Source: Escherichia phage EC100. From it: a stretch of 64,000 nucleotides of DNA. The first letter of the stretch is position 1. Every line of letters starts with the position of its first letter. Location: the sequence record NC_105587.1. One strand, given 5' to 3'. Positions 644-41,588 of the stretch are shown here, piece after piece. Made by a program: the position numbers and the translations under genes. The notes under the pieces were generated by a model. The model saw only the letters and a list, made by a program, of their open reading frames with translations. It was not told the origin of the DNA and made no database searches.

Positions 644-719
644 TGGTACACCCACTAGGACTTGAACCTAGAACCCTCCGCTTAAGAGGCGGTAGCTCTA
701 ACCATTGAGCTATGGATGT
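644..719 (-). tRNA. tRNA-Lys (anticodon CUU)
   Basis: Minus-strand cloverleaf: 7-bp acceptor stem (ACATCCA/TGGGTGT), D-stem GCTC/GAGC, anticodon loop CTCTTAA, T-arm CTAGG-TTCAAGT-CCTAG, encoded 3' CCA. Confidence 0.7.
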
Positions 720-896
720 ATTAAATTACTTTTTCCAGTTCATCAGCTATGGCTTTGATTTTTTCAAAGTTTACATCACTAATAATGATACCTTCCAGTG
801 ATAGAGATATTCTAGCATTTTTCGTAGCAGATTCTTTTATCTGCTCTATATCTTCTGGAGTAAACTCTCTACGTTCCATAGCTAACCTACCTTATT

Positions 897-973
897 TGGC
901 GCGACCGATGGGATTTGAACCCACATTCCCTCCCGTGACAGGGGAGTACCATTACCAAGCCAGCCCCGGTCGC
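897..973 (-). tRNA. tRNA-Asp (anticodon GUC)
   Basis: Perfect 7-bp acceptor stem GCGACCG/CGGTCGC, anticodon stem CTCCC/GGGAG with loop CTGTCAC, T-loop TTCAAAT, encoded CCA. Confidence 0.75.
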
Positions 974-982
974 ATAATTCAT

Positions 983-1168
983 TTACTCAGCTTTGAGTTT
1001 TTCAATAGCTGCATTAAGTTCTTTAAGAAACTCTTTTCGTACATTAAGACGGTTGAGACTTACTAGTATATCATGTTTAAGTTCTTCGATGTATTTCTTC
1101 TCAACTTCAATATTGTTGATAGTGCTATCACGATGAACTTCTAGCTGCGCAATTACATTCTTGGACAT
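983..1168 (-). CDS. hypothetical small coiled-coil protein (61 aa)
   Basis: ATG start preceded by GAGGAA ribosome-binding site; sits between tRNA genes. Confidence 0.4.
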   Translation of the reverse strand: MSKNVIAQLEVHRDSTINNIEVEKKYIEELKHDILVSLNRLNVRKEFLKELNAAIEKLKAE

Positions 1169-1270
1169 GCTTGTTTCCTCAGTTATTAATGAAAATGGTA
1201 TCTGTGGCTGGATTCGATGTCAGCAATGATAGCTGGTTGGCTACCGGTTTACTTAACTCTACACAGAATT

Positions 1271-1353
1271 TGGCGGGCCGTGTAGGATTCGAACCTACGT
1301 TGTCTTTCGACATGGATTAACAGTCCACCGCCAAACCGCTTGGCTAACGACCC
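1271..1353 (-). tRNA. tRNA with anticodon GUU (Asn-type) but a 13-nt variable arm
   Basis: Acceptor GGGTCGT/ACGGCCC, D-stem GCCA/TGGC, anticodon stem GTGGA/TCCAT, loop CTGTTAA, extra arm GTC-GAAA-GAC, T-arm GTAGG-TTCGAAT-CCTAC, CCA. 83 nt. Confidence 0.5.
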
Positions 1354-1505
1354 TGAATTTGTATTGCTGACTAGGATTTTCACCTAGACGGAGTTAGCAC
1401 CGTAGCGTGTAGCGGCATACCTCTCCAAACCGTGCCTCATCTTTCAATTACGGAGACAGTGTTCCTACGCGTGCCTGAATTGATTTAACAATTCTTTCAG
1501 CAAAT

Positions 1506-1581
1506 TGGACGACCGCATGAGATTTGAACTCACATAAAAAGGATTTGCAATCCTTCGCCTAAGCCATTCAGCCAACGGTCG
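1506..1581 (-). tRNA. tRNA-Cys (anticodon GCA)
   Basis: Acceptor CGACCGT/GCGGTCG, anticodon stem AAGGA/TCCTT with loop TTGCAAA, T-arm GTGAG-TTCAAAT-CTCAT, encoded CCA. Confidence 0.7.
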
Positions 1582-1650
1582 GTTTATCTTGTTCTGTCAT
1601 GTTGCTTCTCCAGTTCAATTTATGTAATTATTATACAGAACTTTTGGAAA

Positions 1651-1923
1651 CTAAGCAACTACATTTTTTAAGAATTTGATGCCTTTCTTTTTCTTCTTAT
1701 ATTTCCACGTTAATGGATTCTGTCGATTATGAACGCTTGAGATCTTTGTCTCGTCAAAGTTCTTCAATACCATGTAATCACAAGATAATTGTTTTAATGG
1801 AATGTGATCACCGTCAAAAGCGTATACATAAGGCTGTTGACTAGCACGATAATGATAGACTTTGTTAATTCTACGTTTCAGCAACTTATCCGCGCAGTAA
1901 ATAAAGAAGTTTTCAGGATGCAT
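1651..1923 (-). CDS. hypothetical protein (about 90 aa)
   Basis: Track ORF 1651..1938; internal ATG at 1923 has a GAGGGAG ribosome-binding site, so the start was moved there. Confidence 0.4.
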   Translation of the reverse strand: MHPENFFIYCADKLLKRRINKVYHYRASQQPYVYAFDGDHIPLKQLSCDYMVLKNFDETKISSVHNRQNPLTWKYKKKKKGIKFLKNVVA

Positions 1924-1940
1924 CAGCAGCTCCCTCAATT

Positions 1941-2015
1941 TGGTGCACCCTGTTCGTATCGAACGAACCTCTCAAGCTCTTCAGGCAAGCGCTAATCCAT
2001 CTCAGCTAAAGGTGC
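1941..2015 (-). tRNA. tRNA-like element, anticodon arm not resolvable (possible pseudo-tRNA)
   Basis: Good acceptor stem (GCACCTT/AGGGTGC), T-arm GTTCG-TTCGATA-CGAAC and 3' CCA, but no clean 5-bp anticodon stem could be folded by hand. Confidence 0.3.
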
Positions 2016-2101
2016 AAATTTTGGCAGGGGTAAAGGTATTCGAAACCTTTTCATGGGTTTTGGAGGCCCATTTGCAACCTATGCGTACCCCAATTATTAA
2101 T

Positions 2102-2176
2102 TGGCACACCCAACGAGGATCGAACTCGTGTTCCCACTGTGAAAGAGTGGTGTCCTAACCGCTAGACGATAGGTGC
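2102..2176 (-). tRNA. tRNA-Glu (anticodon UUC)
   Basis: Acceptor GCACCTA/TGGGTGT (two G-U pairs), anticodon stem CCACT/AGTGG with loop CTTTCAC, T-arm ACGAG-TTCGATC-CTCGT, CCA. Confidence 0.65.
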
Positions 2177-2183
2177 ATTAAAT

Positions 2184-2271
2184 TGGTGGGCGTTAATGGA
2201 GTCGAACCACTCGAGTCGCAATGACCAGGGATTTACAATCCCCTCCGCTACCACTTACGGAATAAACGCCC
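2184..2271 (-). tRNA. tRNA-Tyr (anticodon GUA), long variable arm
   Basis: Acceptor GGGCGTT/AACGCCC, anticodon stem GGGGA/TCCCC with loop TTGTAAA, long extra arm, T-loop TTCGACT, CCA. 88 nt. Confidence 0.7.
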
Positions 2272-2352
2272 ATATTTAGAAGTATTCAAATACTAGTTTA
2301 AACACTTTTAAATATGTTTCCAAATTAGATAACTATTATATCAAGTTTTAAG

Positions 2353-2391
2353 GCACTGAGCAAGTAAGATTTTGAAGAACTTGCTCAGTGC
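2353..2391 (-). terminator. stem-loop with 13-bp perfect stem, downstream of 2400..2675
   Basis: GCACTGAGCAAGT ... ACTTGCTCAGTGC inverted repeat; flanking U-tract weak, so possibly a processing or stability element. Confidence 0.4.
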
Positions 2392-2399
2392 TGTATTAG

Positions 2400-2675
2400 T
2401 TAGTCGAACTTAGGAGTGACAGATAAGGAGAACGGAAGTTCAAAAACTTCTTCACCCTCATTACTAACGGTAACTACACGACCTTTAAGTTCAGACATTG
2501 AAATATCAATATCAGCTTTTGCATCTGGAGACATGCCAGCTTCAACACATTTAGCTTTAACTTCCGGAAGGAGTTCTACATCGTAGAAATAAAGCCATTC
2601 AATCTCACCTTCCCAGCCTTCCCAGGATTTACAGATTGCACTTTCAATACCAGTTGCTATAACACGATTTTGCAT
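2400..2675 (-). CDS. hypothetical protein (91 aa)
   Basis: ATG start with GAAGGAG ribosome-binding site; followed by a 13-bp-stem hairpin. Confidence 0.45.
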   Translation of the reverse strand: MQNRVIATGIESAICKSWEGWEGEIEWLYFYDVELLPEVKAKCVEAGMSPDAKADIDISMSELKGRVVTVSNEGEEVFELPFSLSVTPKFD

Positions 2676-2765
2676 TCGTTAACTCCTTCATCAATTTATA
2701 TAACTATTATACCAGAAATTTAAAGCAAAAGGCAAGTACATTTTTAAAAATTCTGTTCGGAGGAG

Positions 2766-2972
2766 CTAAACTCCAGATTCTTCTGCCAAGTCTAGACTAA
2801 TAAGAGTTATAGCCATAATTGCTGCACCGTGTTCTTTTTCTCCGGTGTTTTTAGCAGAGTCTATAATAGTCTTAATCTGTTCGTAATAGCCTTTTACTTC
2901 TTGTTCAATACCTGCCTCGGCTATCATGCCTTTAGTCATGATTCGTTGCATAGTAATTTCACGGTTAGCCAT
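2766..2972 (-). CDS. hypothetical protein (68 aa)
   Basis: ATG-initiated ORF; its start overlaps the stop of a possible unlisted upstream small ORF (about 2965..3132). Confidence 0.4.
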   Translation of the reverse strand: MANREITMQRIMTKGMIAEAGIEQEVKGYYEQIKTIIDSAKNTGEKEHGAAIMAITLISLDLAEESGV

Positions 2973-3161
2973 GTTGTTTCTCCAGCTTCATTTTTAATAG
3001 TTTACAAATGAAATCAACGTCTTCATCTGTACCTAGATCTCTATCTTCAAGGGTTGCCTTGAAATTTTTCGTTAGTTCCATAAGAATAACTTCCCTAGAA
3101 CGACGTGTTGGCGGAGGTGGATGTCTATACATCTTAATTCCTTAACTTGGTAGGGGTTATA

Positions 3162-3845
3162 TCATCTATTTTTCTTAATACTTTTAGGATCTTTCCCTGT
3201 TAGGGACTTATACCTTTTCCTTAATCCAGTATCAGACAATCCTAGTTCTTTGGAGGCACGAATCCAGGAATATTTAGATACCCAGTACTCTATTTGCTCC
3301 ACAGTAATATCTGGATTTATAGTTATCTCTTTAGGAGTACATGATTTACAGTGTGTTGCTCTTGAGCTAATTTCGCAGTGACAAATAGCACACGTATTTA
3401 CAGTCCTTTCTGTATACCTGCCAATATTTTTGCCTGCATGAGTAGGTGTTAGTGCATGGCAATTTGGGCATAGGAAGGCTAAGTTATCCCATTCATTATT
3501 ATAGTGATTTCCATCCTTGTGTTCAAGTTCTAAAGGAATTGGTTTATCTAACCAACTTTCTAAGCCACAACTCTCACATTTATGTGGTTTTAGCCCCTCG
3601 TTAAGAATTTTATTCTTTAGTTTATAGGAAGAAATAGGGCTGCCGTTATATAAATACTCTGTTGCAGACTTATATTTATTATCATACTGCCTATTCGCAG
3701 GAATAACTACTATTCCTAGTTTTCCTAAATATGCTTCCAAAGTGTTCGAGGAGCAGGATAGCATTCTTGCTATCTCTGCTTTAGATTTTCCCTGAGCTAT
3801 CCACTGAGCTATTTCTTCCTTTCTATCTAGTATATCAGTTCTCAT
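3162..3845 (-). CDS. HNH homing endonuclease with N-terminal helix-turn-helix domain
   Basis: HNH motif region HKCESCG...ELEHKDGNHYNNEWDNLAFLCPNCH plus further Cys/His clusters; weak ribosome-binding site; located inside the tRNA island. Confidence 0.7.
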   Translation of the reverse strand: MRTDILDRKEEIAQWIAQGKSKAEIARMLSCSSNTLEAYLGKLGIVVIPANRQYDNKYKSATEYLYNGSPISSYKLKNKILNEGLKPHKCESCGLESWLDKPIPLELEHKDGNHYNNEWDNLAFLCPNCHALTPTHAGKNIGRYTERTVNTCAICHCEISSRATHCKSCTPKEITINPDITVEQIEYWVSKYSWIRASKELGLSDTGLRKRYKSLTGKDPKSIKKNR

Positions 3846-3868
3846 AGTTTATGACTTTATAATTAAGT

Positions 3869-3946
3869 TGGTGGCTCCCCGAGGATTCGAACCTACGTAC
3901 CTTCCGGTTATGAGCCGGGTGCTCATACCATATGAGCTTGAGAACC
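3869..3946 (-). tRNA. tRNA with anticodon CAU (Met or Ile2-type)
   Basis: Acceptor GGTTCTC/GGGAGCC, D-stem GCTC/GAGC, anticodon loop CTCATAA on a CCGG stem, T-loop TTCGAAT, CCA. T-stem pairs only partially. Confidence 0.5.
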
Positions 3947-3952
3947 AAAATC

Positions 3953-4041
3953 TGGCGGAAGAAGTGGGAATCGAACCCACAAGGCTATATTTCAAACCGA
4001 CAGATTAGCAATCTGCTGCAATACCGTTATGCTATTCTTCC
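3953..4041 (-). tRNA. tRNA-Ser (anticodon GCU), long variable arm
   Basis: Perfect acceptor GGAAGAA/TTCTTCC, anticodon stem GCAGA/TCTGT with loop TTGCTAA, long extra arm, T-arm GTGGG-TTCGATT-CCCAC, CCA. Confidence 0.7.
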
Positions 4042-4062
4042 GAATTTATAAGATATATTATA

Positions 4063-4581
4063 TTAGAAATTTAGCTTCATAGCAAGAAAATTTTTCAAGT
4101 TTTCGGTAGACATCTCATCCACATCTACAGGAGAAACAAATCCATTTAATTTTCTAGCAAATTTTTCACCCGCAGGATCGTTGTCCCCGACAGCTACCAA
4201 TTTAAAAGGTAATAATTTCAGTTGCTTTAATAAGGCTTTTCCTGGAGAAGAACCCAACATTGCCAGGGCTGGATAACCAGCGTTATGTAACGCAACTGCC
4301 TTAAATACAGATTCAGCAATCAATACTACTTTTTCATCTCCATTGAGAGTTTCTAGTCCCCATACACACTGTGTAGTAGAATAGGTAAAATATTTAGCTT
4401 CAAAGGGGCACTTACCATGCCCTTTTGGAGCAGAAGGATTATAAGTCTGATAGCCTCTCAACATCCCAGAGAAGTCATACAACGGGACTGTTAGCCATCC
4501 TTCTGGACTTAACCAGCAATGATATTTATCTGTATCAAATCCCCTAGATAAGAGGTGCTGTGTTAGCTCATCAACATTCAT
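4063..4581 (-). CDS. Toprim-domain protein (primase-like catalytic core without zinc ribbon)
   Basis: Toprim signature VVLIAESVFKA (Glu) ... LVAVGDNDPAG (DxD); start moved to the ATG at 4581, which has a GAGAGAGGAA ribosome-binding site. Confidence 0.5.
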   Translation of the reverse strand: MNVDELTQHLLSRGFDTDKYHCWLSPEGWLTVPLYDFSGMLRGYQTYNPSAPKGHGKCPFEAKYFTYSTTQCVWGLETLNGDEKVVLIAESVFKAVALHNAGYPALAMLGSSPGKALLKQLKLLPFKLVAVGDNDPAGEKFARKLNGFVSPVDVDEMSTENLKNFLAMKLNF

Positions 4582-4756
4582 ATTTGGTTCCTCTCTCAAA
4601 TTTATAGATATATTATACAGAGAATTTAGCATTCAAGCAATCAAATTTTTTAACTTTTTAGAGGAAAATCATAGGGCACTTAAGGGTAGCAGATAAGTGG
4701 TGAGGACCAAAATTTGTGACCCCACTAAAAATCCGGGGGCAATTTTTAAAGACCCC

Positions 4757-4785
4757 TTGACATTTTCGCTGGGGTAGTGTAAAGT
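4757..4785 (+). promoter_or_regulatory. sigma70-type promoter (TTGACA, 17 bp, TAAAGT) for the plus-strand low-complexity module
   Basis: TTGACATTTTCGC -35 core shared with the element at 32904; 60 nt upstream of the GGAGG ribosome-binding site. Confidence 0.45.
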
Positions 4786-4848
4786 ATATGTTATGGATGA
4801 GTGATCAAAGAGACACACATTTTCTGTATACTAGGAGGTGTCAAAAAA

Positions 4849-5840
4849 TGACAGAAGAAGTAGCTAAGAGTCCTGAGACCGTCGCTAGCGTTGCGGCAGA
4901 ACTGCACCGTCACGAGGAATCAGATAAGAAAAAGTGGGAGAAGGTCAGAGCCTACGAAGAAAAACATCGTGAACACGATGATGAAGACGATGAAGATGAC
5001 GATGATGAACATTGTCATAAATATGGAAAACATAAAATGCAAGAACCAGTAAACGTATTTACTAATGGCTTCCCTGGCCTACTAGGTGGTTACCCAGCAA
5101 ACGTAGGTGCTTTCGGTGGTGAAGGTATGGGACTATTCGGAGCTATCCTAATCGGCGCTCTATTAACAGGCGGATTCGGTGGTTTCGGTGGATTCGGTGG
5201 ACGTGGTGTTGTTGGTGAAGGTACCGCAGTTGATGCAGTACTTCAGAACCAAGATACCGCTAGTATTCTAGCAGCTATCAACACTACTCGTACAGAAGCT
5301 AACCAGGGTACCGGAGCTGTTTTAAGCGCAGTTAACAATGGTTTTAGCCAGACATCCCAAAACCAGAGCCGTGATACTCAGTCTGTATTAACTACGATCT
5401 ATGGTACAGGTGCTAATCTGTCTAATCAGATCTGCCAGGAAACCCGCAACGTTATTCAGGGTCAGTTCGATCTTTCTCGCCAGATTGATCAATCTTTCGC
5501 AGCTAACCAGATAGCTCGTGCACAAGATAAATTTGATTCTGCACAGATAGCTTTCCAGCAGACTTTACAAACTAATAACCAGTTTGCCGCTGTTCAGGCT
5601 CAGATGTGTGCTAACCAGAACTCTCTGGAACGTCAGATCGCTGAATGTTGCTGTGAACTTCAGACTGCGATCGCTGGTGTAACTACTGCGCGTATCCAGG
5701 ATGAGTTAGATGCATGTCGCCTACGTGAAGCAATCGCTGCGGGTAGCGGTGCTAACGGTCAGGTAATTAATCAAATCGCTTTAAGTCTTGGTGCTATCAC
5801 TCAGACTCTGGCTGGTCTGCAGGCTAAACTGCCGGCTTAA
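4849..5840 (+). CDS. low-complexity protein: acidic N-terminus, Gly-zipper hydrophobic segment, Q/N/T-rich Cys-containing C-terminus
   Basis: GGAGG ribosome-binding site 9 nt upstream of the ATG at 4849; acidic run DDEDDEDDDDE, GLFGAILIGALLTGGFGGFGGFGG, roughly 200 aa Q/N/A/T-rich tail with CCC. Confidence 0.55.
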
Positions 5841-5861
5841 TATTAAGGGGAGGAGCCCATT

Positions 5862-6275
5862 ATGAGTAAATATGGTTTTGTAAATAACGGACTTAATCAA
5901 AGTATGGGCTCCCAGCAGCCCATTCCGGGTCTGGATAACCCCTACTTACAACAGTTGCAACAGCGTTTAGCAGAAGCGCAACAGATGCAGCAACAACTCC
6001 AGCAAAACCCTGGAAGTGTGAGTCCTATGCAAATGATGCAGCAAATGAGCGGGCAGTCGCAAATGCCTCAACAAATGCAGCAACAGATGCCGCAGCAAGT
6101 TCAGCAACAAACCCAACAACCGCAGGTTTCTGCGGAAGGACAGGCAGTACTAGCCCTTTTCGAAGACTTCGCAAAGACAGAGGATGGGAAACAGCTTGTA
6201 TCACTTATGGGTAAGTTTAATAGCTTCTGCCAAAGCCAAATTGCAAAAGCTCAAAATAGCGGTAATAACTCCTAA
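5862..6275 (+). CDS. glutamine-rich protein (137 aa)
   Basis: GGAGG ribosome-binding site; QQLQQRLAEAQQMQQQLQQ...QQMQQQMPQQVQQQTQQPQ; codon usage of highly expressed genes. Confidence 0.55.
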   Translation: MSKYGFVNNGLNQSMGSQQPIPGLDNPYLQQLQQRLAEAQQMQQQLQQNPGSVSPMQMMQQMSGQSQMPQQMQQQMPQQVQQQTQQPQVSAEGQAVLALFEDFAKTEDGKQLVSLMGKFNSFCQSQIAKAQNSGNNS

Positions 6276-6284
6276 GGAGGGATT

Positions 6285-6479
6285 ATGTGTTGCAGAAAAT
6301 CTGTTTCGTGCTGCCCAATGCCTGTAGCACGTTGTTGCTCTCCAGCAATGTTTACGCAAATACCGGCGTTCAATCCGTTTGCCTTTAAGCCTACTCTTAT
6401 CCTGCCCCCTAGAGTAGATTTTCAGTCAAGATTGGCCTCCCGTATGGGTGGTTGCTGTAATAAGAGTATATGGTTCTGA
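6285..6479 (+). CDS. cysteine-rich small protein with four vicinal CC pairs (64 aa)
   Basis: AGGAGG ribosome-binding site; MCCRKSVSCCPMPVARCCSP...GGCCNK; followed by an intrinsic terminator. Confidence 0.45.
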   Translation: MCCRKSVSCCPMPVARCCSPAMFTQIPAFNPFAFKPTLILPPRVDFQSRLASRMGGCCNKSIWF

Positions 6480-6495
6480 AGAACCAAACAATAAA

Positions 6496-6529
6496 GCCCC
6501 TAGTCGAAAGACTTAGGGGCTTTTCTTTT
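6496..6529 (+). terminator. intrinsic terminator ending the plus-strand low-complexity module
   Basis: GCCCCTAGTC-GAAA-GACTTAGGGGC hairpin followed by TTTTCTTTT. Confidence 0.75.
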
Positions 6530-6540
6530 ATCTTAAATAC

Positions 6541-6574
6541 AGAAAAGCCCTGCGCTCTCCAGGAAACGCAGGGC
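6541..6574 (-). terminator. intrinsic terminator after the SPFH gene
   Basis: GCCCTGCG ... CGCAGGGC hairpin with a U-tract on the minus strand; convergent with the 6496 terminator. Confidence 0.65.
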
Positions 6575-6599
6575 TTACTTCAGATGTTACATGCGGGTA

Positions 6600-7547
6600 T
6601 TATTTATTACGCATATCCATAATCATTTGGCCATCATAGCCAGTGCCAACCACAGTCTGCGGTACACCACCCTGATACTTCTGAGCACGAATCATTTCAA
6701 CTTCCAGTTGCTTCCAGCGAATCATCTCAGGAGTAATGGTACGTTGCAGTGCGGCGTTAGCTTCAGCTTCTTTCTTAGCTGCGTACAGTTTAGCATCTGC
6801 ATCACGTTCATTAGCAATAGCTTGGTTGTTGCGAGCTTCACGATCTGCTTCTGCTTGTTTAACTTTTTGCTGTGCTTCCTGTTCAACACGAGCTAATTCA
6901 GCTTTAGCAGCATTAACCTGTTCTTCACGAACTTTGGTATTCTGTACCTGTTCCATGATTACCGGTGGCAAAGTAATATCCTGAAGGAACACCTGCTTAA
7001 CTGTGTAACCATATGGGCGTGCATACTCTTCAACTTCCTGTTGAATTGCAGTTTGCAATTGAGCCTGAATTTTAGCATCAAACAAATCTTGTGCTTTAGG
7101 CACAGACTTACCAAACTCACGAATAGTAGACAATAATTTTTCAGTTACATATTTGTCTAACGCTTGATCCTGAGTACCTGCATTAATACGGTTAATCGGT
7201 GCCTTAGAACCATCAAATTGCAACATAACAGTCAAGTCAACAGTGGATTTAAACTTATCCTGACTAGGAACCTGAAGTTTATCTAATTTTACAGCAATAT
7301 CTTTTGTACTAAAAGTATCGAAAGATGCAAACGGGTTTACAAGATGGAAACCAGGTAATACTGGGTTAGGATCTACTTTACCCAGAAATGTTTGGGTTTT
7401 AACCGTACCATCAGAAACAATAGTATATGAATTAAAAGCTAGGATTAAACCTGCTAAACCAACTACAGCACCAATACCCCAACGTTTAATAGTACGAATT
7501 ACTTTCTGCTCAGAAGTCAGTTCTTTCATATTTTTAGTATTAAACAT
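6600..7547 (-). CDS. SPFH/band-7 (HflC/prohibitin-like) membrane protein
   Basis: N-terminal transmembrane helix (WGIGAVVGLAGLILAF), SPFH-like core, C-terminal Ala/Glu/Gln-rich coiled coil; ATG with AGGA ribosome-binding site. Confidence 0.65.
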   Translation of the reverse strand: MFNTKNMKELTSEQKVIRTIKRWGIGAVVGLAGLILAFNSYTIVSDGTVKTQTFLGKVDPNPVLPGFHLVNPFASFDTFSTKDIAVKLDKLQVPSQDKFKSTVDLTVMLQFDGSKAPINRINAGTQDQALDKYVTEKLLSTIREFGKSVPKAQDLFDAKIQAQLQTAIQQEVEEYARPYGYTVKQVFLQDITLPPVIMEQVQNTKVREEQVNAAKAELARVEQEAQQKVKQAEADREARNNQAIANERDADAKLYAAKKEAEANAALQRTITPEMIRWKQLEVEMIRAQKYQGGVPQTVVGTGYDGQMIMDMRNK

Positions 7548-7581
7548 ATATTTCCTTTGTTTTAGTTACAGTTAATAAAGT

Positions 7582-7656
7582 TGGCCGAGGTGACAGGATT
7601 CGAACCTGCATAAAGGAATTTAGAAGACTCCTGCCTCTCCCTTAGACTACACCCCG
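7582..7656 (-). tRNA. tRNA-Arg (anticodon UCU)
   Basis: Acceptor CGGGGTG/CACCTCG, anticodon stem GGAGT/ATTCC with loop CTTCTAA, T-arm GCAGG-TTCGAAT-CCTGT, CCA. Confidence 0.7.
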
Positions 7657-22997: not shown

Positions 22998-23025
22998 AGA
23001 TTTATAAATTTGAGAGGAGAAAGAT

Positions 23026-29594: not shown

Positions 29595-29625
29595 AGATTC
29601 ATAAATTTGAGAGAGGAGTTTAAAT

Positions 29626-30634: not shown

Positions 30635-30692
30635 TATTCTCATAGTTTGAAAGAACTATTCTGTTTAATTCTTAATTAAGGAAATATAAAAT

Positions 30693-31103
30693 ATGACTAC
30701 TCCAACTCAGTGGACTGATGAACTGTTTGAAAAAATGTCTTCCGAATATGTTGCTCGTATGGAGCAATTCCCAGAGGATGAACGTCCGGGCGTTAGCATG
30801 GAAATTGTTAGTGAAATTGCCCAGGAAAATGGTGTAACTCCGAACGGTTTTCGTATGAAGCTGACTAAAGCAGGTTTGTATATCAAGAAAGCTGCTGGTT
30901 CTACTTCTAAATCTAGCGCATCTACTGGAGAAAAAGCTTCCGGTGGTTCTCGTACCTCCAAAGCTCAAGCCCATGCCGACCTTCGTTCAGCGTTCTCTGA
31001 TGCTGGCTTAGCACCAGATTTTCTGGATGATGCAATTATCGACAAATTGACCGGTAAAGCGGCTGCTCATCTGGCAGAAGCAATCCGAGCTATCACTAAG
31101 TAA
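30693..31103 (+). CDS. hypothetical protein, likely abundant (136 aa)
   Basis: T5-class promoter (30606-30634) and AAGGA ribosome-binding site; E. coli-optimal codons; Ser/Thr/Ala-rich linker. Confidence 0.5.
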   Translation: MTTPTQWTDELFEKMSSEYVARMEQFPEDERPGVSMEIVSEIAQENGVTPNGFRMKLTKAGLYIKKAAGSTSKSSASTGEKASGGSRTSKAQAHADLRSAFSDAGLAPDFLDDAIIDKLTGKAAAHLAEAIRAITK

Positions 31104-31138
31104 TTTTAGATAAATCCACCACAAAAGGAACTATAGCT

Positions 31139-31435
31139 ATGACTAAAGCTGAAATTATTGCACAGTGCGAAAAATTTGGTGAGTTTTATCTTCATTACGA
31201 GAAACTTCGTCAGAAAGGAACCACGTACCTTCAGGGTACAATGGAATTTGATCCAGCCCAAGATAAATATCTGGCTGAGCGTATTAAACGTGAACGTATT
31301 CGTAAAGCGAAAGATGATGAAATCCTTGTCTTCTCTCGTACTAATGATAGCTTCCGTTTTATTCCTGTCGAGAAAGTTCGTCGTGTGACTAGCCTCCAAT
31401 CAGAGTTAGATCGTGCTTCTCCAGTAGGCCGATAA
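31139..31435 (+). CDS. hypothetical protein (98 aa)
   Basis: AAAGGA ribosome-binding site; followed by an intrinsic terminator. Confidence 0.5.
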   Translation: MTKAEIIAQCEKFGEFYLHYEKLRQKGTTYLQGTMEFDPAQDKYLAERIKRERIRKAKDDEILVFSRTNDSFRFIPVEKVRRVTSLQSELDRASPVGR

Positions 31436-31443
31436 GAAAACAA

Positions 31444-31466
31444 TTAGCCCCTATATGGGGCTTTTT
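31444..31466 (+). terminator. intrinsic terminator
   Basis: AGCCCC-TATAT-GGGGCT followed by TTTTTG. Confidence 0.7.
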
Positions 31467-31485
31467 GTGTATTTGGGATATGTAA

Positions 31486-31794
31486 ATGAGCGAACAGGTA
31501 AATCAAAACTATGAAGGACACGTTGATGACCAGTCCATCATACTTTGGGAGAAGGAGGGAGAACAAGTAAGATTAACAGTATCTGAATTTCGTGGGAATC
31601 TATACATGGGTATTCGTTACTGGCTTCTTGATATTAATGATGAATGGTTTCCAACGAAATCTGGCTTCTCTTTTCCTTACACCCTAGAAACAACATCACA
31701 GCTTTTCTATGCGTTTACACAGATTCTCAGCGAATCTGAGGTTTTACATGAAGTACAGAAACGAGCTGAAGAACTCAAAGCCAAGAATGCCTAG
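31486..31794 (+). CDS. PC4/YdbC-like ssDNA-binding protein
   Basis: PC4-fold signature: WEKEGEQVRLTVSEFRGNLYMGIRYWLLDINDEWFPTKSGFSFP; 102 aa. Confidence 0.5.
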   Translation: MSEQVNQNYEGHVDDQSIILWEKEGEQVRLTVSEFRGNLYMGIRYWLLDINDEWFPTKSGFSFPYTLETTSQLFYAFTQILSESEVLHEVQKRAEELKAKNA

Positions 31795-31821
31795 TTCTTG
31801 GCTTTTTCTTTATAAATGTAT

Positions 31822-31850
31822 TTGCTTTCAACTCAGTTTTGATATATAAT
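31822..31850 (+). promoter_or_regulatory. T5 early-class promoter upstream of the ligase N-terminal gene
   Basis: TTGCTT, 17 bp, TATAAT followed by ATTTATATAAATT. Confidence 0.6.
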
Positions 31851-31881
31851 ATTTATATAAATTAATGAGAGATATAAATAA

Positions 31882-32853
31882 ATGACCAATGTAAAAGAAT
31901 TTATTAAACGCTGTCAAGAAGCATATTATCAAGGCATGTCTTTAATCTCTGATGAAGAATATGATCGCCTGGTAAAACGCTTCCCGTTAGAGGAAGAGAT
32001 CGGGCCTAAGGGTGATATTCCACACCTATATCGTATGTATTCTTTACAGAAAGTTTATTATAACCGTGGGGATAAACCACCATTTAATCCTTTAGGTCAG
32101 GTAGAAACTGATAAGTTAGATGGTTGTGCAATTTCTCTGCTATATATTAACGGTGAATTTGTTCAAGCATTAACCCGTGGTAATGGTATTCTGGGAAATG
32201 ATGTAACAAGCAACGTAAGATTGCTGAACATTCCTAAAAAGATTTCCCAAAAAGTACCTACTCAAATCACTGGTGAAGTTCTAATTACAAAAGAAGTAGA
32301 AAATAAACGTAACTTTGCCTCTGGTGCTATTAACCTCAAAGATAGTGATGCTTTCGTACAACGCATTGGAGAAGGCGGTTTAATCTTTGTTGCTTACGGT
32401 ATCCAATGTTCTGCTGAATCTGTAGGTATTACAGAAGCATATTTAAAAGATATGCTTTGGCTAGAGAAGGAGAACTTCTTAACAGTTGTTAATGTGCGTT
32501 CCTTTTTTAAATGGATTCCTACGGACGGTAAAGTTGTTCGTATTAATGACAATAACAAATTCTTCCGTGAAGGCTGGACTAATAAATTCCCTCGTGGAGC
32601 ATTCGCCATTAAAGAGGATGAAGAAGGCGAAATTACAACTCTTACTAAAGTTGAATGGCAGGTAGGGGCTTCTGGTAAAGTAACTCCAGTTGGTTATTTC
32701 GAACCGGTAATTATTGATGATGCTACAATTGTTAAAGCGACTCTTAATAACGTTGATTATATTAACTCTCTTGATCTAGAGATCGGTTGCCAGATTCGAG
32801 TGATTCGTGCTGGTGGTGTAATCCCGTGCATAGTAGAGCGAGTATACGATTAA
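31882..32853 (+). CDS. NAD-dependent DNA ligase, N-terminal adenylation/OB part (split gene)
   Basis: LigA-type adenylation block KLDGCAISLLYINGEFVQALTRGNG; own T5-class promoter upstream. Confidence 0.8.
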   Translation: MTNVKEFIKRCQEAYYQGMSLISDEEYDRLVKRFPLEEEIGPKGDIPHLYRMYSLQKVYYNRGDKPPFNPLGQVETDKLDGCAISLLYINGEFVQALTRGNGILGNDVTSNVRLLNIPKKISQKVPTQITGEVLITKEVENKRNFASGAINLKDSDAFVQRIGEGGLIFVAYGIQCSAESVGITEAYLKDMLWLEKENFLTVVNVRSFFKWIPTDGKVVRINDNNKFFREGWTNKFPRGAFAIKEDEEGEITTLTKVEWQVGASGKVTPVGYFEPVIIDDATIVKATLNNVDYINSLDLEIGCQIRVIRAGGVIPCIVERVYD

Positions 32854-32903
32854 TACATAACCCTTTGCTACCCATCTACCATATCGGAATTATAAAGTGG
32901 TTA

Positions 32904-32932
32904 TTGACATTTTCGCCGCTTAGGTATATACT
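32904..32932 (+). promoter_or_regulatory. sigma70-type promoter (TTGACA, 17 bp, TATACT) between the ligase halves
   Basis: TTGACATTTTCGC core identical over 13 nt to the 4757 element. Confidence 0.45.
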
Positions 32933-32996
32933 ATTATCATTCAGTTGAGGGATAGAAAGTTATGGCGAGGGTAAGCAAAGTTAGTTAAAATTGTAG

Positions 32997-33025
32997 TTGC
33001 TAAATGCTTAAATACTTGCTATAAT
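32997..33025 (+). promoter_or_regulatory. T5 early-class promoter upstream of the ligase C-terminal gene
   Basis: TTGCTA, 17 bp, TATAAT followed by ATTTATATAAATT and the AGGAAG ribosome-binding site. Confidence 0.6.
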
Positions 33026-33055
33026 ATTTATATAAATTGATAAGGAAGAAATTTG

Positions 33056-33835
33056 ATGAAAATCGAAATTCCAACACAATGTCCCTCTTGTGGTTCTAAG
33101 CTAGATCTTGTCAACGGACAATTATTCTGTCGTAATAAGTCCAACTGTCCAGCGCAATCAAGTAAGTTAATTGAGAACTTCTGTTCAAAAATGAAGTTAA
33201 AGGGCTTTGGCCCAAAAACTATTGAGAAGCTGGAGCTGACGAAGATTTCAGAACTATTTTACCTAACCGAAGAAGATTTGGTTAGAGCCGTGGGTAGCAA
33301 GGTTGCCGCTAAGTTAATTAGCGAATTAAATACTAAAGTTCGCGGAGACATTGACTTTGGTTCAGTTCTCGGTTCTTTAGGAATCCCTCTAATTGGAGAG
33401 GTTGCAGCAAAGAAATTGTCCCAAAATTGCACCAGTTTTCAAGATGTGAAGGCTGACGGCAAGGCTGGAGAAAACTATAAAGCCTGGCTAAATTCCCCAC
33501 AAGGCAAGGATGTTATCGAATTACCGTGGAAATTCACAACTGGTATTAAAGGTGCTAAAGCTGAGGTCATCATTACTGATGGTCTAGTAGCCCAGCCAAA
33601 TGGAATCGCGGTGTGTATTACCGGGTCTTTGCAAGATTTTGCAAATCGAACGGATGCAACAAACTATTTAGAAGGTCTAGGATATACGGTTAAGAAATCC
33701 GTTACCAAAGACGTCAAATACCTAATCTGTGAGGATGAATCTAAGCGTTCTTCCTCATCTTATAAGAAAGCCGAAACGAATGGGATAGAAATCCTGTCGA
33801 TTAAAGAACTATTGGAGAAAAATAATAATGTCTAA
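33056..33835 (+). CDS. NAD-dependent DNA ligase, C-terminal zinc finger/HhH/BRCT part (split gene)
   Basis: Zinc finger CPSCGS...C...C, helix-hairpin-helix region, BRCT-like C-terminus; AGGAAG ribosome-binding site and own promoter. Confidence 0.75.
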   Translation: MKIEIPTQCPSCGSKLDLVNGQLFCRNKSNCPAQSSKLIENFCSKMKLKGFGPKTIEKLELTKISELFYLTEEDLVRAVGSKVAAKLISELNTKVRGDIDFGSVLGSLGIPLIGEVAAKKLSQNCTSFQDVKADGKAGENYKAWLNSPQGKDVIELPWKFTTGIKGAKAEVIITDGLVAQPNGIAVCITGSLQDFANRTDATNYLEGLGYTVKKSVTKDVKYLICEDESKRSSSSYKKAETNGIEILSIKELLEKNNNV

Positions 33836-34595
33836 ACTGAACTGGAACGTAGAAGGTGTAACCGAGTCTCTGAAAGCAAAAGCCACTGCTCTGGGTGTTG
33901 CTGTAATCTCTCAAGAACAAGTAGCGGCTATCGCTGCTGAACTGGCTGCTGAAACTGGCAAAGACGTTACCGCTCGCTCTGTTGGCTCTAAGCTGCGTAA
34001 AGAAGGTTTCGAAGTACAGAAAGCTAACGAAGTACAGAAATCCCCGTGGACTCCTGAGCAGGAAGCTGAACTGGTTGATTTCCTGAACGCTCATGCTGGT
34101 CAGTATACCTATGCTGAAATCGCTGCTGCTGTAGCTGGTGGTCAGTTCGGTGCTAAGCAGGTACAGGGTAAGATCCTGAGTCTGGAAATGACCGCTTCTG
34201 TTAAACCAACTGAAAAAGCTGCTGCTGTTCGTTCCTTCACTCCGGATGAAGAAACTGACTTTGTTAATCAGGTTGTTGCTGGAGCTACTATTGAAGCTAT
34301 CGCTGCTCACTTCGGTCGTAATATCAAACAGATCCGTGGTAAAGCTCTGAGTCTGCTTCGTGAAGGTCGTATCGCCGCTATGCCGGTACAGGAAACTTCA
34401 AGTGCTAAAACTCGTGAAGATCTGTTAGAAGGTCTGGATCTGGCTAACATGACCGTTGCTGAGATCGCTGAGAAAACTGGTAAGTCTGAGCGCGGTGTTA
34501 AATCTATGCTGTCTCGTCGTGGTCTGGTTGCTAAGGACTATGATGGTGCCGCTAAGCGTGCTAAACTGGATGCAAAAGCTGCGGCTGCTGAATAA
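33828..34595 (+). CDS. abundant DNA-binding-like protein with three helix-turn-helix-like repeats
   Basis: Three repeats (YTYAEIAAAVAGGQFGAKQVQGKILSL / TIEAIAAHFGRNIKQIRGKALSL / MTVAEIAEKTGKSERGVKSMLSR); optimal codons; terminator downstream. Confidence 0.6.
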   Translation: MSKLNWNVEGVTESLKAKATALGVAVISQEQVAAIAAELAAETGKDVTARSVGSKLRKEGFEVQKANEVQKSPWTPEQEAELVDFLNAHAGQYTYAEIAAAVAGGQFGAKQVQGKILSLEMTASVKPTEKAAAVRSFTPDEETDFVNQVVAGATIEAIAAHFGRNIKQIRGKALSLLREGRIAAMPVQETSSAKTREDLLEGLDLANMTVAEIAEKTGKSERGVKSMLSRRGLVAKDYDGAAKRAKLDAKAAAAE

Positions 34596-34611
34596 TCTGG
34601 TAAATTAAACC

Positions 34612-34646
34612 TAAGGGGAGGGGGCTATGCTCCTTCCCCTTTTTGC
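34612..34646 (+). terminator. intrinsic terminator after the helix-turn-helix repeat gene
   Basis: AGGGGAGGGGGC...GCTCCTTCCCCT imperfect hairpin followed by TTTTTG. Confidence 0.6.
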
Positions 34647-34677
34647 ATTTAGAAGGCACGAAAGCGTGCAAAGGAGA

Positions 34678-36150
34678 ATGACCTTGTTTAACGTGCAAGC
34701 TGTAGTGTTGAAGATGCTTCTAGCTTCCGAACAGAAGCAAATAGCATTGGAAACATTCTCAAAACTGCATAAAGATCATTTTAATGACGCTTTCTCCTCA
34801 ATTTACCAAGCCGTCCAGAATTATTATAAAAAATATAACACAATGCCGTCCATTGACGCACTGATGCTTGAGTCTAATAGGAACGCCCGCCTTTCTCAAG
34901 CTCTAGTCGTCTTAGCTAACACTCAAATTCCAGAAGTGAGCATGGAACAGGCACTTGAAGTCCTAGAGGCCGAATATACACAGGATTTATTCCTGAAGCT
35001 TCTAGAAACAGACGTGCTTCAAGATTTAACAATGCTGGATCAGGGAGAAATTCTCAACCGAGTTGCCTCCCTTCACTTAAAATTAGAAGAGAAAGTAACG
35101 AATACTGGAAAAGTATTCAACGCAGATAACATGCGTATTTTCCAGAGAGAAGAAGATACCAAACTGAACTTAATCGCTCTTGGTATTTGTAATGAGTTCG
35201 ACGCTCAAATTGGTTTAGCTCGCACAGAAACGTTACTGCTTGGTGGTTGGCGTGGTACTGGTAAATCCATTATCTGTTCAAACATACAGGTTCAGCAATA
35301 TTTGAATGGAGATATTGCTCCATACTTCTCAATTGAGATGAAAGAACATGAAGTATTTAGACGTAATCTAGCCATGTTAGCTGGTGTATCAGCATTAGCA
35401 ATGCGTAATAATACTCTAGAAGGTGCAGCTCTGTTGAGGTTGGCCAGAACTAGAGCTAGAATGTTTAATGGTGGTGAAGAGCTTTTTGATAACTTCGTTA
35501 AACAGTACACAATGGCTAAGATGAGTGATTTCTACGATATGGAGAGTAAGCTAATAGAGGGATATGAACTACATACTCCTATGATTATTGTTTATGATCC
35601 TGAGCTGTCCATTACAACAGTTGACGTAGAATTAAATAAATTAGTTGCTAGATATGGTGATAAAGTTACAGTAGCTTTACTGGACTATATTAACCAAACC
35701 CGACTTCCAGACTCTAAAACCATTGATATGTATGACTGGAAAGAACAGATGGTTGTTAGCTCGTCTTTCAAATCTATCTGCCAGAAACATAACGTGGCTG
35801 GAGTAGCTCCTTACCAGATCGATCAAGATGGTAGAACACGTATGTCAAAGGGGATTCTTGATTCCGCAGACATGGCTGCTAATCTTAATGCTGCAAAAGC
35901 TGATAATGGTCAAGGTGCTATTATGTTTGACTTCGTTAAGACTCGTTCTTCTGATAGCGTGAAGTTTATGCCTAAAATGAACTGGGAAACTCTGCGAATG
36001 GATAACACTACCAATCTAGCAATGGAAGATATATCTCAAATGGAAGCTGAGTTCGTTATCCCTATTGAGAAGGATAAGTCGGCTCAACCTAAACGTGCTA
36101 AGAAAGACAAAGCTGAAAATTCAACAGGTGAACAGGCCAGCGATATATGA
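34678..36150 (+). CDS. DnaB-like replicative helicase (RecA-fold ATPase)
   Basis: Walker A GGWRGTGKS, DnaB-like FSIEM block; exact start uncertain (ATG 34678 or TTG 34684). Confidence 0.7.
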   Translation: MTLFNVQAVVLKMLLASEQKQIALETFSKLHKDHFNDAFSSIYQAVQNYYKKYNTMPSIDALMLESNRNARLSQALVVLANTQIPEVSMEQALEVLEAEYTQDLFLKLLETDVLQDLTMLDQGEILNRVASLHLKLEEKVTNTGKVFNADNMRIFQREEDTKLNLIALGICNEFDAQIGLARTETLLLGGWRGTGKSIICSNIQVQQYLNGDIAPYFSIEMKEHEVFRRNLAMLAGVSALAMRNNTLEGAALLRLARTRARMFNGGEELFDNFVKQYTMAKMSDFYDMESKLIEGYELHTPMIIVYDPELSITTVDVELNKLVARYGDKVTVALLDYINQTRLPDSKTIDMYDWKEQMVVSSSFKSICQKHNVAGVAPYQIDQDGRTRMSKGILDSADMAANLNAAKADNGQGAIMFDFVKTRSSDSVKFMPKMNWETLRMDNTTNLAMEDISQMEAEFVIPIEKDKSAQPKRAKKDKAENSTGEQASDI

Positions 36151-37037
36151 GTAGAATAACAGAACTACTTGATCTGAAAGGCATTGAATATAAAGACACA
36201 GGTGGGGACATCCTCATCTGTTGTCTCAATCCAGATCATGACGATAAACACCCAAGTTTGCGTATTGATCCTGAAACAGGTATTATGCACTGCTTGAGTT
36301 GTGGCTTCGGTAAAGGTATACCGAGCATTTACCATTATTTTAATGAGACTCAGTACCGACAGTCTCCAAGACTATCACAGGTACGTAAAAAGATTTCAGA
36401 GATTAGGAATGGATCTACGAATCTTGCAATTCCTGAATCTGCTTACCTTTTCGAAGGTGATTTCCGAGGTATAAGTTCTAAGACCTTGAAGAAATATTTT
36501 GCTTTCCAACACCAAGCAGACTGGGAAGGCAGAATTGTATTCCCAATCACAGATGCTGTTGGACGCAATATCCTATTTTTGGGTCGTTCTATAAACAGTT
36601 CTGCCCCTCCTAAATACTTAGTAAAACCAAAACAAGTTTCACCACCAATTTTTCCTGTACGATATAATACTCCAGTTCTTATTCTAGTTGAAGGTATCTT
36701 TGATCTGCTAAATCTAGAGGATAATGGTATAGACTATGCTTCTTGTTGCTTTGGTACACATCAGTTTACTTCAGACAACATTGCGGATAAGTTTAGTCCT
36801 TATATTATTGCTGGTGTAAAAGTTGTTGTTATCTTACTAGATAATGATGCTTCGGGTAATAAAGCTGCACAAGCACTGGCCAAGCTAATTCGTACAAAAA
36901 CGCGTTTAACACCTGTAGTTGCTAACTTTCTTCTACCTGAAGGTAAAGACCCAGGTGACCTAAATAAAGAAGAAATTGATATGTTAGCAAAACGTATTGA
37001 AATTTTAGTTGCTGAATCGCTTAAAGATTTGGTATAA
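36147..37037 (+). CDS. DNA primase (zinc ribbon plus Toprim)
   Basis: Zinc-binding CCLNPDHDDKHPSL...HCLSCG, Toprim LVEGIFD...LLDNDASG; ATGA overlap with the helicase stop. Confidence 0.8.
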   Translation: MSRITELLDLKGIEYKDTGGDILICCLNPDHDDKHPSLRIDPETGIMHCLSCGFGKGIPSIYHYFNETQYRQSPRLSQVRKKISEIRNGSTNLAIPESAYLFEGDFRGISSKTLKKYFAFQHQADWEGRIVFPITDAVGRNILFLGRSINSSAPPKYLVKPKQVSPPIFPVRYNTPVLILVEGIFDLLNLEDNGIDYASCCFGTHQFTSDNIADKFSPYIIAGVKVVVILLDNDASGNKAAQALAKLIRTKTRLTPVVANFLLPEGKDPGDLNKEEIDMLAKRIEILVAESLKDLV

Positions 37038-37099
37038 TATATTGGTAAGTTAGAGAAGAAACACTGAAGTTATACTTACTTACCAAGAGGAGATTAAAT

Positions 37100-41518: not shown

Positions 41519-41588
41519 ATATACATAAATTTGAGAGAGAAAGTTTCGGATTGATAAGAAAGTCCGAAGCAGAAAAATAAAAATTTTA

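Follow-up and report, generated by a model that had tools for sequence, protein, structure and literature searches.

The open reading frame at 4063..4581 on the minus strand of the window (the whole 64,000-nucleotide stretch of the Escherichia phage EC100 record NC_105587.1 that was analysed) is almost certainly rad, the gene for the retron anti-defense protein Rad. Structure prediction and profile comparison indicate that Rad is a complete, minimal, stand-alone RNA-polymerase domain (RPD) of the DnaG type and not a bare or generic Toprim or RNase domain. We nevertheless do not file it as a primase, because the zinc-binding domain and the helicase link, both of which are defining, are missing. 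The gene is already known: it has carried a Toprim or 'primase' annotation since about 2004-2005, and its function was named in 2023 and reported in 2023-2025. The additions made here are the assignment of the complete minimal RPD fold, a census of the family and its genomic context, the split of the family into ES.FK and EG.FD sequences, a promoter argument for a 172-residue product, and the finding of a conserved split version in jumbo phages.

The features of the rad region, in window coordinates, are:

4063..4581, minus strand: rad coding sequence, ATG at 4581-4579, 172 codons plus stop
4582..4632, minus strand: in-frame upstream extension, yielding the 189-aa reading frame annotated in SP15 and EC122
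4589..4605, minus strand: conserved T5-type promoter leader ATAAATTTGAGAGAGGA, which includes the rad ribosome-binding site
4612..4640, minus strand: early promoter P15a, -35 TTGCTT (4640-4635), 17-nt spacer, -10 TATAAT (4617-4612)
4057..4085, minus strand: promoter P15b, TTGCTA, 17 nt, TATAAT, overlapping the last rad codons
3953..4041, minus strand: tRNA-Ser(GCU), beginning 21 nt downstream of the rad stop
2184..2271, minus strand: tRNA-Tyr(GUA), from the tRNA call

The same gene goes under several names, namely T5.076 (YP_006904.1), T5 ORF071 (AAX12008), SP15 ORF75 and rad, while most database records label the protein 'DNA primase' or 'hypothetical protein'. The window reading frame has its syntenic homolog in T5 ORF071 (AY587007 37201-37719), and the window segment 3000-6000 shows about 92% nucleotide identity to T5. 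In SP15 (AP019559), the 570-nt coding sequence E0157_075 (BBJ33849.1) lies directly upstream of tRNA-Ser and tRNA-Met, and its product is identical to that of the window at 188/189 positions of the long reading frame and at 172/172 positions of the core. The sole difference is a K-to-R exchange in the N-terminal extension, which is untranslated or optional. Since the locus, synteny and sequence of E0157_075 all match the window reading frame, we excluded that SP15 ORF75 is a different gene; SP15 ORF75 and T5 ORF071 both sit directly upstream of tRNA-Ser and tRNA-Met/Ile2, as in the window. The residues R13, P33, I88, D135 and E156 (172-aa numbering) are all present in the window protein. The equation of T5 ORF071 with Rad is also made in the BF23 paper (PMC10644984).

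The published function of this gene is anti-retron activity. SP15 ORF75, which lies in the tRNA-rich region of a T5-like phage, rescues deletion phages from the retrons Ec67, Ec78 and Ec83 and inhibits Ec48 and Se72 (Azam et al., bioRxiv 10.1101/2023.03.15.532788). Expressed alone, the SP15 protein rescues phages from Eco2/Ec67 and Eco7/Ec78. Rad was found to reduce retron ncRNA and msDNA while the RT/effector transcripts were unaffected, an effect that is described in the preprint only and is possibly indirect, and its function was impaired by the substitutions R13E, P33T, I88T, D135H and E156H (10.1101/2023.03.15.532788). In the peer-reviewed version (Nat Commun 2024) ORF75 is still the determinant for evading Eco2 and Eco7, and a Nat Commun 2025 paper speaks of 'the anti-defense protein Rad'. 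The anti-retron assays cover a few close Rad homologs and were done on the identical SP15 protein.

The rad start codon is preceded, at a distance of 7 nt, by the ribosome-binding site GAGAGGA. P15a was read from the sequence, and the T5 reference NC_005859 annotates 'promoter P15a' at the equivalent position; an A-rich stretch lies upstream of it. A simple consensus scan missed this promoter because its -35 element fits the consensus at just 3/6 positions. Since the ATG of the 189-aa reading frame (4632-4630) falls inside the 17-nt spacer of P15a, between the -35 and -10 elements, the 172-aa form is the likely product, and the extension is probably untranslated from the gene's own promoter. 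The numbering of the published mutants likewise agrees with the 172-aa form alone and not with the 189-aa form. The leader ATAAATTTGAGAGAGGA occurs in exact copies at 4589-4605 (minus) and 29601-29617 (plus), and 7 sites with at most 3 mismatches were found where 0.43 were expected. Downstream, P15b (10/12 consensus matches in the scan; annotated 'promoter P15b' in T5) drives the tRNA genes that follow rad. The island comprises nine tRNA genes, spread over 644-7656 and all read from the minus strand, thus in the same orientation as rad. The nearest of them, tRNA-Ser(GCU), has its counterparts in T5 tRNAS3 and SP15 E0157_tRNA022 and belongs to the same tRNA-rich anti-defence region as rad. Across 25 T5-clade alleles the median dN/dS was ~0.05, so rad is a real gene under constraint. 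Its role is that of an accessory counter-defence gene, which T5-like phages express early from their tRNA-rich island.

At the protein level, Pfam Toprim_2 (PF13155) matched residues 88-149 of Rad with 25.2 bits (gathering cut-off 22.1), Pfam Toprim and Toprim_4 matched more weakly, and PHROG 849 'DNA primase' matched with an E-value of 2.5e-62. The acidic residues are E90 (AESVFK), D133-N-D135 (GDNDPAG) and D153/D155 (SPVDVDEM), and the Toprim core superposes on those of RNase M5, topoisomerases and primases. A zinc ribbon was seen neither as a CxxC/CxxH motif nor as a zinc-ribbon family in the Pfam scan of Rad, whose only three cysteines (C22, C58 and C72) are isolated. As a positive control for this search, the N-terminus of the phage's canonical primase matched Zn_ribbon_DnaG (CHC2) with 27.6 bits (cut-off 24.9). 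A DnaG-type zinc-ribbon gene was found neither adjacent to rad in the window nor near its homologs in the 49 lineages of the context census described below. Small Cys-motif reading frames do occur near the homologs in 17/49 lineages, but they form a mixed set (HNH, PF23903 'phage zinc binding domain', generic ribbons) and none is of the DnaG type; a separate zinc-ribbon protein was therefore rejected as a general partner of Rad. Precedent for a separately encoded primase-type zinc ribbon exists in jumbo phages (PMC7824862). TtDnaG2 was dismissed as a zinc-less precedent because it has a zinc-binding domain.

The canonical primase of the same phage and its flanking genes are located as follows:

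36147..37037, plus strand: canonical primase, 296 aa
34627-36150: flanking 507-aa reading frame, annotated as a DnaB-like replicative helicase in other phage records
37100-39667: flanking 855-aa reading frame with polymerase-A-like motifs

In addition to its zinc ribbon, this primase matched the dnaG model TIGR01391 (1.9e-21). The rad gene lies ~31 kb away from this T5 replication module, and Rad and the primase share 23% identity over 132 aa (E 0.066), so that rad did not arise by a recent duplication of this primase gene. These results bear out much of what the first-pass annotation had read in the DNA, namely the Toprim acidic residues (E, DxD), the lack of a zinc ribbon, the bona fide primase encoded separately at 36147, the location inside the tRNA island and the likeness of the ribosome-binding-site region to the T5-class promoter leader. 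The profile search that it had proposed was positive for Toprim, the refuting outcome that it had named being the lack of a Toprim fold.

An AlphaFold2 model of Rad was built on six homologs, with a mean pLDDT of 89.3 and a pTM of 0.85. Fold comparison of this model gave the following scores and aligned residues:

Aquifex 2au3: 13.3, 161/172
Bacillus 5guj: 13.2, 161
Twinkle: 12.6, 157
T7 gp4 1nui: 12.2, 145
E. coli 1dd9: 12.0, 161
T4 gp61: 9.2, 145

Consistent with this, a profile of 93 Rad-family members aligns with E. coli DnaG via FPIxDxxGxxxGF, (K/R)Y, EGxxD and DxD, and the N-terminal 'HLxxRG' of Rad is the counterpart of 'YLxxRG', the motif that opens the DnaG RPD. We take R13 of Rad to be the equivalent of R146 in the YLxxRG motif of DnaG (E. 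coli numbering). Specifically, Rad has both parts of the DnaG-type RPD fold, an N-terminal subdomain and a Toprim domain with motifs II-VI, and it ends ~20 residues past motif VI with no helicase-binding domain. A single-sequence search of the PDB sequences with Rad gave chance matches only, for example to xylanases.

Rad is thus closest in fold to the DnaG-type RPDs (E. coli 1dd9/3b39, Aquifex 2au3, T7 gp4 1nui, T4 gp61 8dvf), but it has only about half as many residues as a bacterial RPD and, unlike the DnaG-type primases, has no zinc-binding domain and no C-terminal helical or helicase-binding domain. In real primases, the absent domains provide the link to template sites and to the replisome; rad, in contrast to the genes of DnaG primases, lies outside replisome operons and is dispensable. 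Within the shared core, R221 of DnaG is replaced by a conserved tyrosine (Y47), and T5-clade Rad has S91/K94 where DnaG has G/D. Naturally zinc-finger-less or inactive primase domains are also known from the T7 gene 4 56-kDa protein and metazoan Twinkle; these, however, stay attached to a replicative helicase and operate at the replication fork, whereas Rad, a 19-kDa protein, is unattached, keeps its acidic centre intact and serves in anti-defence. The nearest NCBIfam model is TIGR00646, the short DnaG-like model (218 positions) of the MG010-type 'DNA primase-like protein' of Mycoplasma, but membership was ruled out since Rad scored 20.4 bits (E 3e-4), far under the cut-off of 260.65. The Toprim nucleases (RNase M5; OLD/AriB/GajA; the Toprim effector of retron Eco2) share with Rad the Toprim core and acidic metal site, and they set a precedent for the cleavage of RNA or tRNA by a Toprim domain. 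Rad was not placed in the OLD/AriB/GajA or RNase M5 families, as it showed neither a family profile match nor a partner domain (ABC ATPase; RNase M5 C-terminal domain).

An exhaustive profile search over 1.84 billion representatives revealed 855 family proteins at E <=0.001, of which 353 reached E <=1e-10; a first, word-indexed search had recovered just 6. Among the best 150 of the 855, nearly all are stand-alone proteins of 165-190 aa, and the compact zinc-less form is therefore the family norm rather than a truncation in T5. Conservation, counted over 119 stand-alone sequences, was as follows:

E90: 118/119
F93: 114/119
D133: 105/119
D135: 113/119
G138: 111/119
D153: 109/119
R13: 116/119
G43, Y64 and G75: 119/119 each

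The metal-binding centre (E90, D133, D135, D153) and the DnaG motif II/III residues (R13, G43, K63-Y64) are thus both kept across a large phage family. Most members read EG.FD at the first acidic residue, as DnaG does, while the T5 clade, ~1/3 of the family, reads ES.FK; judged from these sequences, the active-site chemistry may differ within the family. Fusions are rare. The Rad domain is joined to a CCA-adding-type nucleotidyltransferase, with or without HD, twice and in opposite orders (P0072, P0098), and elsewhere to a cytidylyltransferase-like domain, an Arr-type ADP-ribosyltransferase, or GNAT, Mom, HAD and ParB-N domains. A DUF3268 zinc ribbon is fused to it once, at the N-terminus, as in a full primase (P0061). 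Jumbo phages, Erwinia phages among them, carry a conserved split version of the family protein, which may be made either through a programmed +1 frameshift or as two polypeptides.

The distribution of rad is that of an accessory gene. At >=80% identity it was found in 270 phage records compared with 440 for the canonical primase, and about 40% of T5-like genomes are without it. The viable T5Mos (delta 30661-38625) lacks it, T5.076 lying at 37279-37797, as do other viable T5 tRNA-region deletion mutants. BF23 has lost ORF071-075 (PMC10644984), and interrupted copies are present in L028, L066 and L067. To describe the context, we surveyed 6 kb around the gene at 168 loci, taken from viral metagenomes as well as isolates and grouped into 49 lineages at 80% identity. 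The neighbours within 6 kb were:

tRNA genes: 21/49 lineages
NAMPT: 10/49 lineages
T4 Rnl1-type RNA ligase: 5/49 lineages
PF09414 RNA ligase: 4/49 lineages
CCA enzyme: 2/49 lineages
T5-type DnaG, DnaB or PolA: 0/49 lineages

Where tRNA clusters occur they always have the same orientation as the gene, which is often embedded in them (T5-likes, Novosibvirus, the ~180-kb Arash-like phages, L047-L055/L065), but at 66/80 majority-clade loci no tRNA is nearby. When, in each lineage, the three genes closest to the rad homolog (147 proteins in all) were scanned without bias against Pfam, 42 families were matched. Among the 25 of these that were listed, those with more than one member were NAMPT, RNA ligase, Dam methylase, Clp protease, EndoV, and UPF0227 and Band_7 with two each, and the single matches include NUDIX, an NMNAT-like domain and a CCA-type nucleotidyltransferase; helicases or polymerases were absent from these 25 families besides one SNF2 and one gp32. 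The islands also hold methylases, proteases and homing endonucleases, and three more long contigs have similarly mixed auxiliary neighbours. In Vibrio phage F101 the homolog overlaps a tRNA nucleotidyltransferase gene. The Kagunavirus homolog overlaps the terminal part of a gene for an SNF2-family helicase, at the margin of the replication module; it is supernumerary there, as the phage has its own 746-aa helicase-primase as well. A neighbour family of antisense-of-tRNA reading frames from the first clustering was discarded as an artefact. A context of this kind is characteristic of an accessory island for counter-defence, away from replication; taken alone, it pointed to anti-defence but could not have named retrons. 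Hints to wider targets of this family of 353 clusters are seen in the recurrent CCA-enzyme, NMNAT-like, Arr and Mom fusions and in the tRNA, NAD-salvage and RNA-ligase islands.

The best explanation of these observations is, in our judgement, that Rad is an anti-retron protein that probably acts through its primase-derived cleft and its Toprim centre. The structured msr-msd RNA, or the RNA-DNA product, that all retrons have in common would be recognised by the cleft and then either destroyed or blocked in its maturation by the two-metal Toprim centre. The RT-msDNA-effector complex would then never be built or maintained, and the abortive-infection effector would never be licensed. The published mutants fit a requirement for the active site, since D135 is the latter of the two DxD aspartates, E156 belongs to motif VI and R13 is the arginine of YLxxRG. 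That the step is nucleolytic has, we infer, an even chance. A Toprim nuclease was one of three functions put forward by the first-pass annotation, and it is the one nearest to the published proposal. Counting against such a step, the modelled fold is nearest to polymerising primases and not to Toprim nucleases, the PADLOC nuclease models gave no match to Rad (only a weak DnaG-like DRT-associated one was seen), and the conserved primase NTP/template motifs (R13, K63-Y64) are not obviously needed by a plain nuclease. In vitro nuclease activity of Rad is not reported in the literature. The same fold and the same non-metal motifs, which are those of polymerising DnaG and T7 primases, keep alive the main rival to a nuclease, namely that Rad is a primase-type polymerase or a binder on msDNA or on the RNA-DNA junction of the msd template. 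In that case a Rad without the zinc-ribbon specificity module would make RNA on single-stranded msDNA, or cap it, the resulting RNA:DNA duplex would be removed by RNase H and others, and the loss of ncRNA and msDNA would be secondary. P0061, the family member that begins, as full primases do, with a zinc ribbon, is in line with this alternative. On the other hand, isolated RPDs without the zinc-binding domain, such as those of E. coli DnaG and T7 gp4, are very poor at template-directed initiation, and primer synthesis by Rad is not reported in the literature. While the impairment by R13E would suit a polymerase, the reported loss of the ncRNA precursor itself would not (10.1101/2023.03.15.532788), and we regard this alternative as possible but rather improbable. 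Similarly tentative is the idea that Rad may be an active, sequence-unspecific mini-primase repurposed as a weapon, which would not cut RNA but polymerise on, or act in some other way on, the single-stranded msDNA or RNA-DNA junction of retrons, with the family being a general nucleic-acid-directed counter-defence enzyme that has further targets.

The remaining explanations fare less well. Many anti-defence proteins act by binding, and a stoichiometric inhibitor or decoy that binds the RT, the ncRNA or the effector could block assembly of retrons with unrelated effectors (a Toprim fusion in Eco2, PtuAB in Eco7), from which it follows that the target is the shared RT/ncRNA/msDNA module. However, the metal-binding residues hardly vary within the family, D135H impairs function, and a pure binder need not retain a Toprim catalytic centre under a dN/dS of 0.05; conservation of the catalytic centre therefore makes a pure decoy unlikely. 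We give still less weight to an ancestral or main role of the family in tRNA or RNA processing or repair, with the anti-retron effect as a side activity of an RNA-directed enzyme. The two independent fusions to CCA-adding-type nucleotidyltransferases, the gene overlap in Vibrio phage F101, the co-oriented tRNA clusters of several lineages and the RNA ligase neighbours of several lineages all suit such a role, but the islands also hold NAMPT, methylases, proteases and homing endonucleases, so that co-location may mark a general anti-defence island. The large share of majority-clade loci with no nearby tRNA and the viability of T5 deletion mutants lacking rad speak against it too, and a tRNA phenotype of Rad is not reported. 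The least probable explanation, to which we assign very little weight, is an auxiliary or regulatory primase in T5 DNA replication, the reading of the earlier annotation. Homology with the primase catalytic core and the Kagunavirus overlap with a helicase gene are in its favour, as is the fact that T7 naturally makes a zinc-finger-less 56-kDa gp4. Against it stand the distance of rad from the replication module, the absent helicase-binding domain, the dispensability of the gene and its loss from many T5-likes, the consistent absence of T5-type DnaG, DnaB and PolA beside it, the near-absence of helicases and polymerases from the neighbour families listed, and the experimental demonstration of a different function. 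The interpretation given by the first-pass annotation is hence partly supported. Its structural reading was right, and a 'truncated primase paralog' holds in so far as Rad is a DnaG-type relative without a zinc ribbon, though it is neither a duplicate of the phage's own primase nor truncated, as its family is a distinct and widespread one of stand-alone proteins. A 'regulator of priming' finds no support in the census or in the viable T5 deletion variants, and none of the three proposed functions is the published one.

The label 'DNA primase' is misleading for the annotation of replication modules in T5-like phages, Guernseyvirinae and jumbo phages. Rad is the first anti-retron protein, and its assignment as a minimal RPD narrows the choice between nuclease, polymerase and binder to a few direct assays. 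Natural variants worth testing are members of both the EG.FD and the ES.FK clade, the version split in jumbo phages and the fusion to a zinc ribbon. The island also holds a positional counterpart of a second published anti-retron factor, the SP15 tRNA-Tyr, which offsets the cleavage of tRNA-Tyr by retron Eco7/Ec78. By position, not by sequence alignment, the tRNA-Tyr(GUA) at 2184..2271 corresponds to this tRNA of the SP15 tRNA-rich region.

The start of rad, the retron anti-defense gene, bears on how the protein is numbered. A 189-aa form is the annotated version in the T5-like phage SP15 and in EC122, and the same length is given for Rad by Azam et al. (bioRxiv 10.1101/2023.03.15.532788). The ATG of this longer ORF, which extends the gene through window 4582-4632 (-), falls between the -35 and -10 hexamers of P15a, the early promoter of rad, while the 172-aa form agrees with the numbering of published Rad mutants. 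The rad starts in databases are probably 17 codons too long. The conserved T5-type leader upstream of rad, ATAAATTTGAGAGAGGA, which includes the ribosome-binding site, recurs in the window exactly or with 1-2 mismatches at 29601-29617 (+), 23004-23020 (+) and 41525-41541 (+). These further copies probably mark other strong early promoters or leaders.

Downstream of rad, the island contains the following features (window coordinates):
2184-2271, tRNA-Tyr
~2400-3132 (-), small ORFs, by position probably the counterparts of SP15 ORF71-73 (T5.072-074)
3162-3845 (-), HNH homing endonuclease of 227 aa, homolog of T5 hegA / F-TflIV
~3869-3946 (-), tRNA site between tRNA-Ser and hegA, annotated as tRNA-Ile2(CAU) in T5 and as tRNA-Met in EC122 and SP15
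Despite these annotations, no tRNA was called by ARAGORN at the last site. Among the ORFs listed for the window, the small ORFs are represented only by 2965-3132 (T5.074-like). Two of SP15 ORF71-73 are reported to neutralise retron Ec83 jointly (bioRxiv 10.1101/2023.03.15.532788). tRNA-Tyr is the published canceller of retron Eco7, the window copy being matched to that of SP15 by position.

The rad gene is interrupted or pseudogenised in some genomes (the T5-like locus L028 and the Arash-like loci L066 and L067) and is missing from ∼40% of T5-like records, which together point to frequent loss where retron selection is absent. Homing nucleases of the hegA type, whose gene in the window lies closely 3' of rad and two tRNAs, have been suggested as drivers of gain and loss at the rad locus (PMC10644984). 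Some T5-like phages (e.g. L010, L011 and L013) carry a 61-aa CxxC...CxxC zinc-ribbon ORF about as far 3' of rad (∼410 nt).

The commonest recurring protein neighbour of Rad homologs was NAMPT, an enzyme of NAD+ salvage, found in 10 of the 49 lineages. RNA ligases of two kinds, PF09414 with a PHA02142 OB fold and T4 Rnl1-type, also recurred; loci of this NAMPT/RNA-ligase group include L047-L051, L057, L065, the L098 group, L105, L140 and L166, among others. This recurrence suggests that islands with Rad homologs are composite, jointly countering tRNA cleavage, NAD+ depletion and retrons.

In all ∼19-20 Erwinia/Dickeya jumbo-phage loci (L004 and L070-L088; for example, L074 6001-6517), the Rad homolog consists of two overlapping ORFs, the second shifted to +1. 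The frame change coincides precisely with the junction of the N-terminal subdomain ('...VWG') and the Toprim subdomain ('TVFLTESVFK'); it reflects a programmed +1 frameshift or, alternatively, a true two-polypeptide form. Directly 3' of the split gene, at least one locus (L084) has an ORF with the PF23903 'phage zinc binding domain'.

Fusions of the Rad-type domain were occasional (P0072, P0098, P0054, P0065, P0023, P0090, P0107, P0081 and P0061). Two fusions, opposite in domain order, were to a nucleotidyltransferase of the CCA-adding type, with or without HD; other partners were a cytidylyltransferase/NMNAT-like domain, GNAT plus Arr, Arr alone, Mom, HAD, ParB-N and a DUF3268 zinc ribbon. 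The rad homolog of Vibrio phage F101 (L005) shares 112 nt with the end of a gene for tRNA nucleotidyltransferase.
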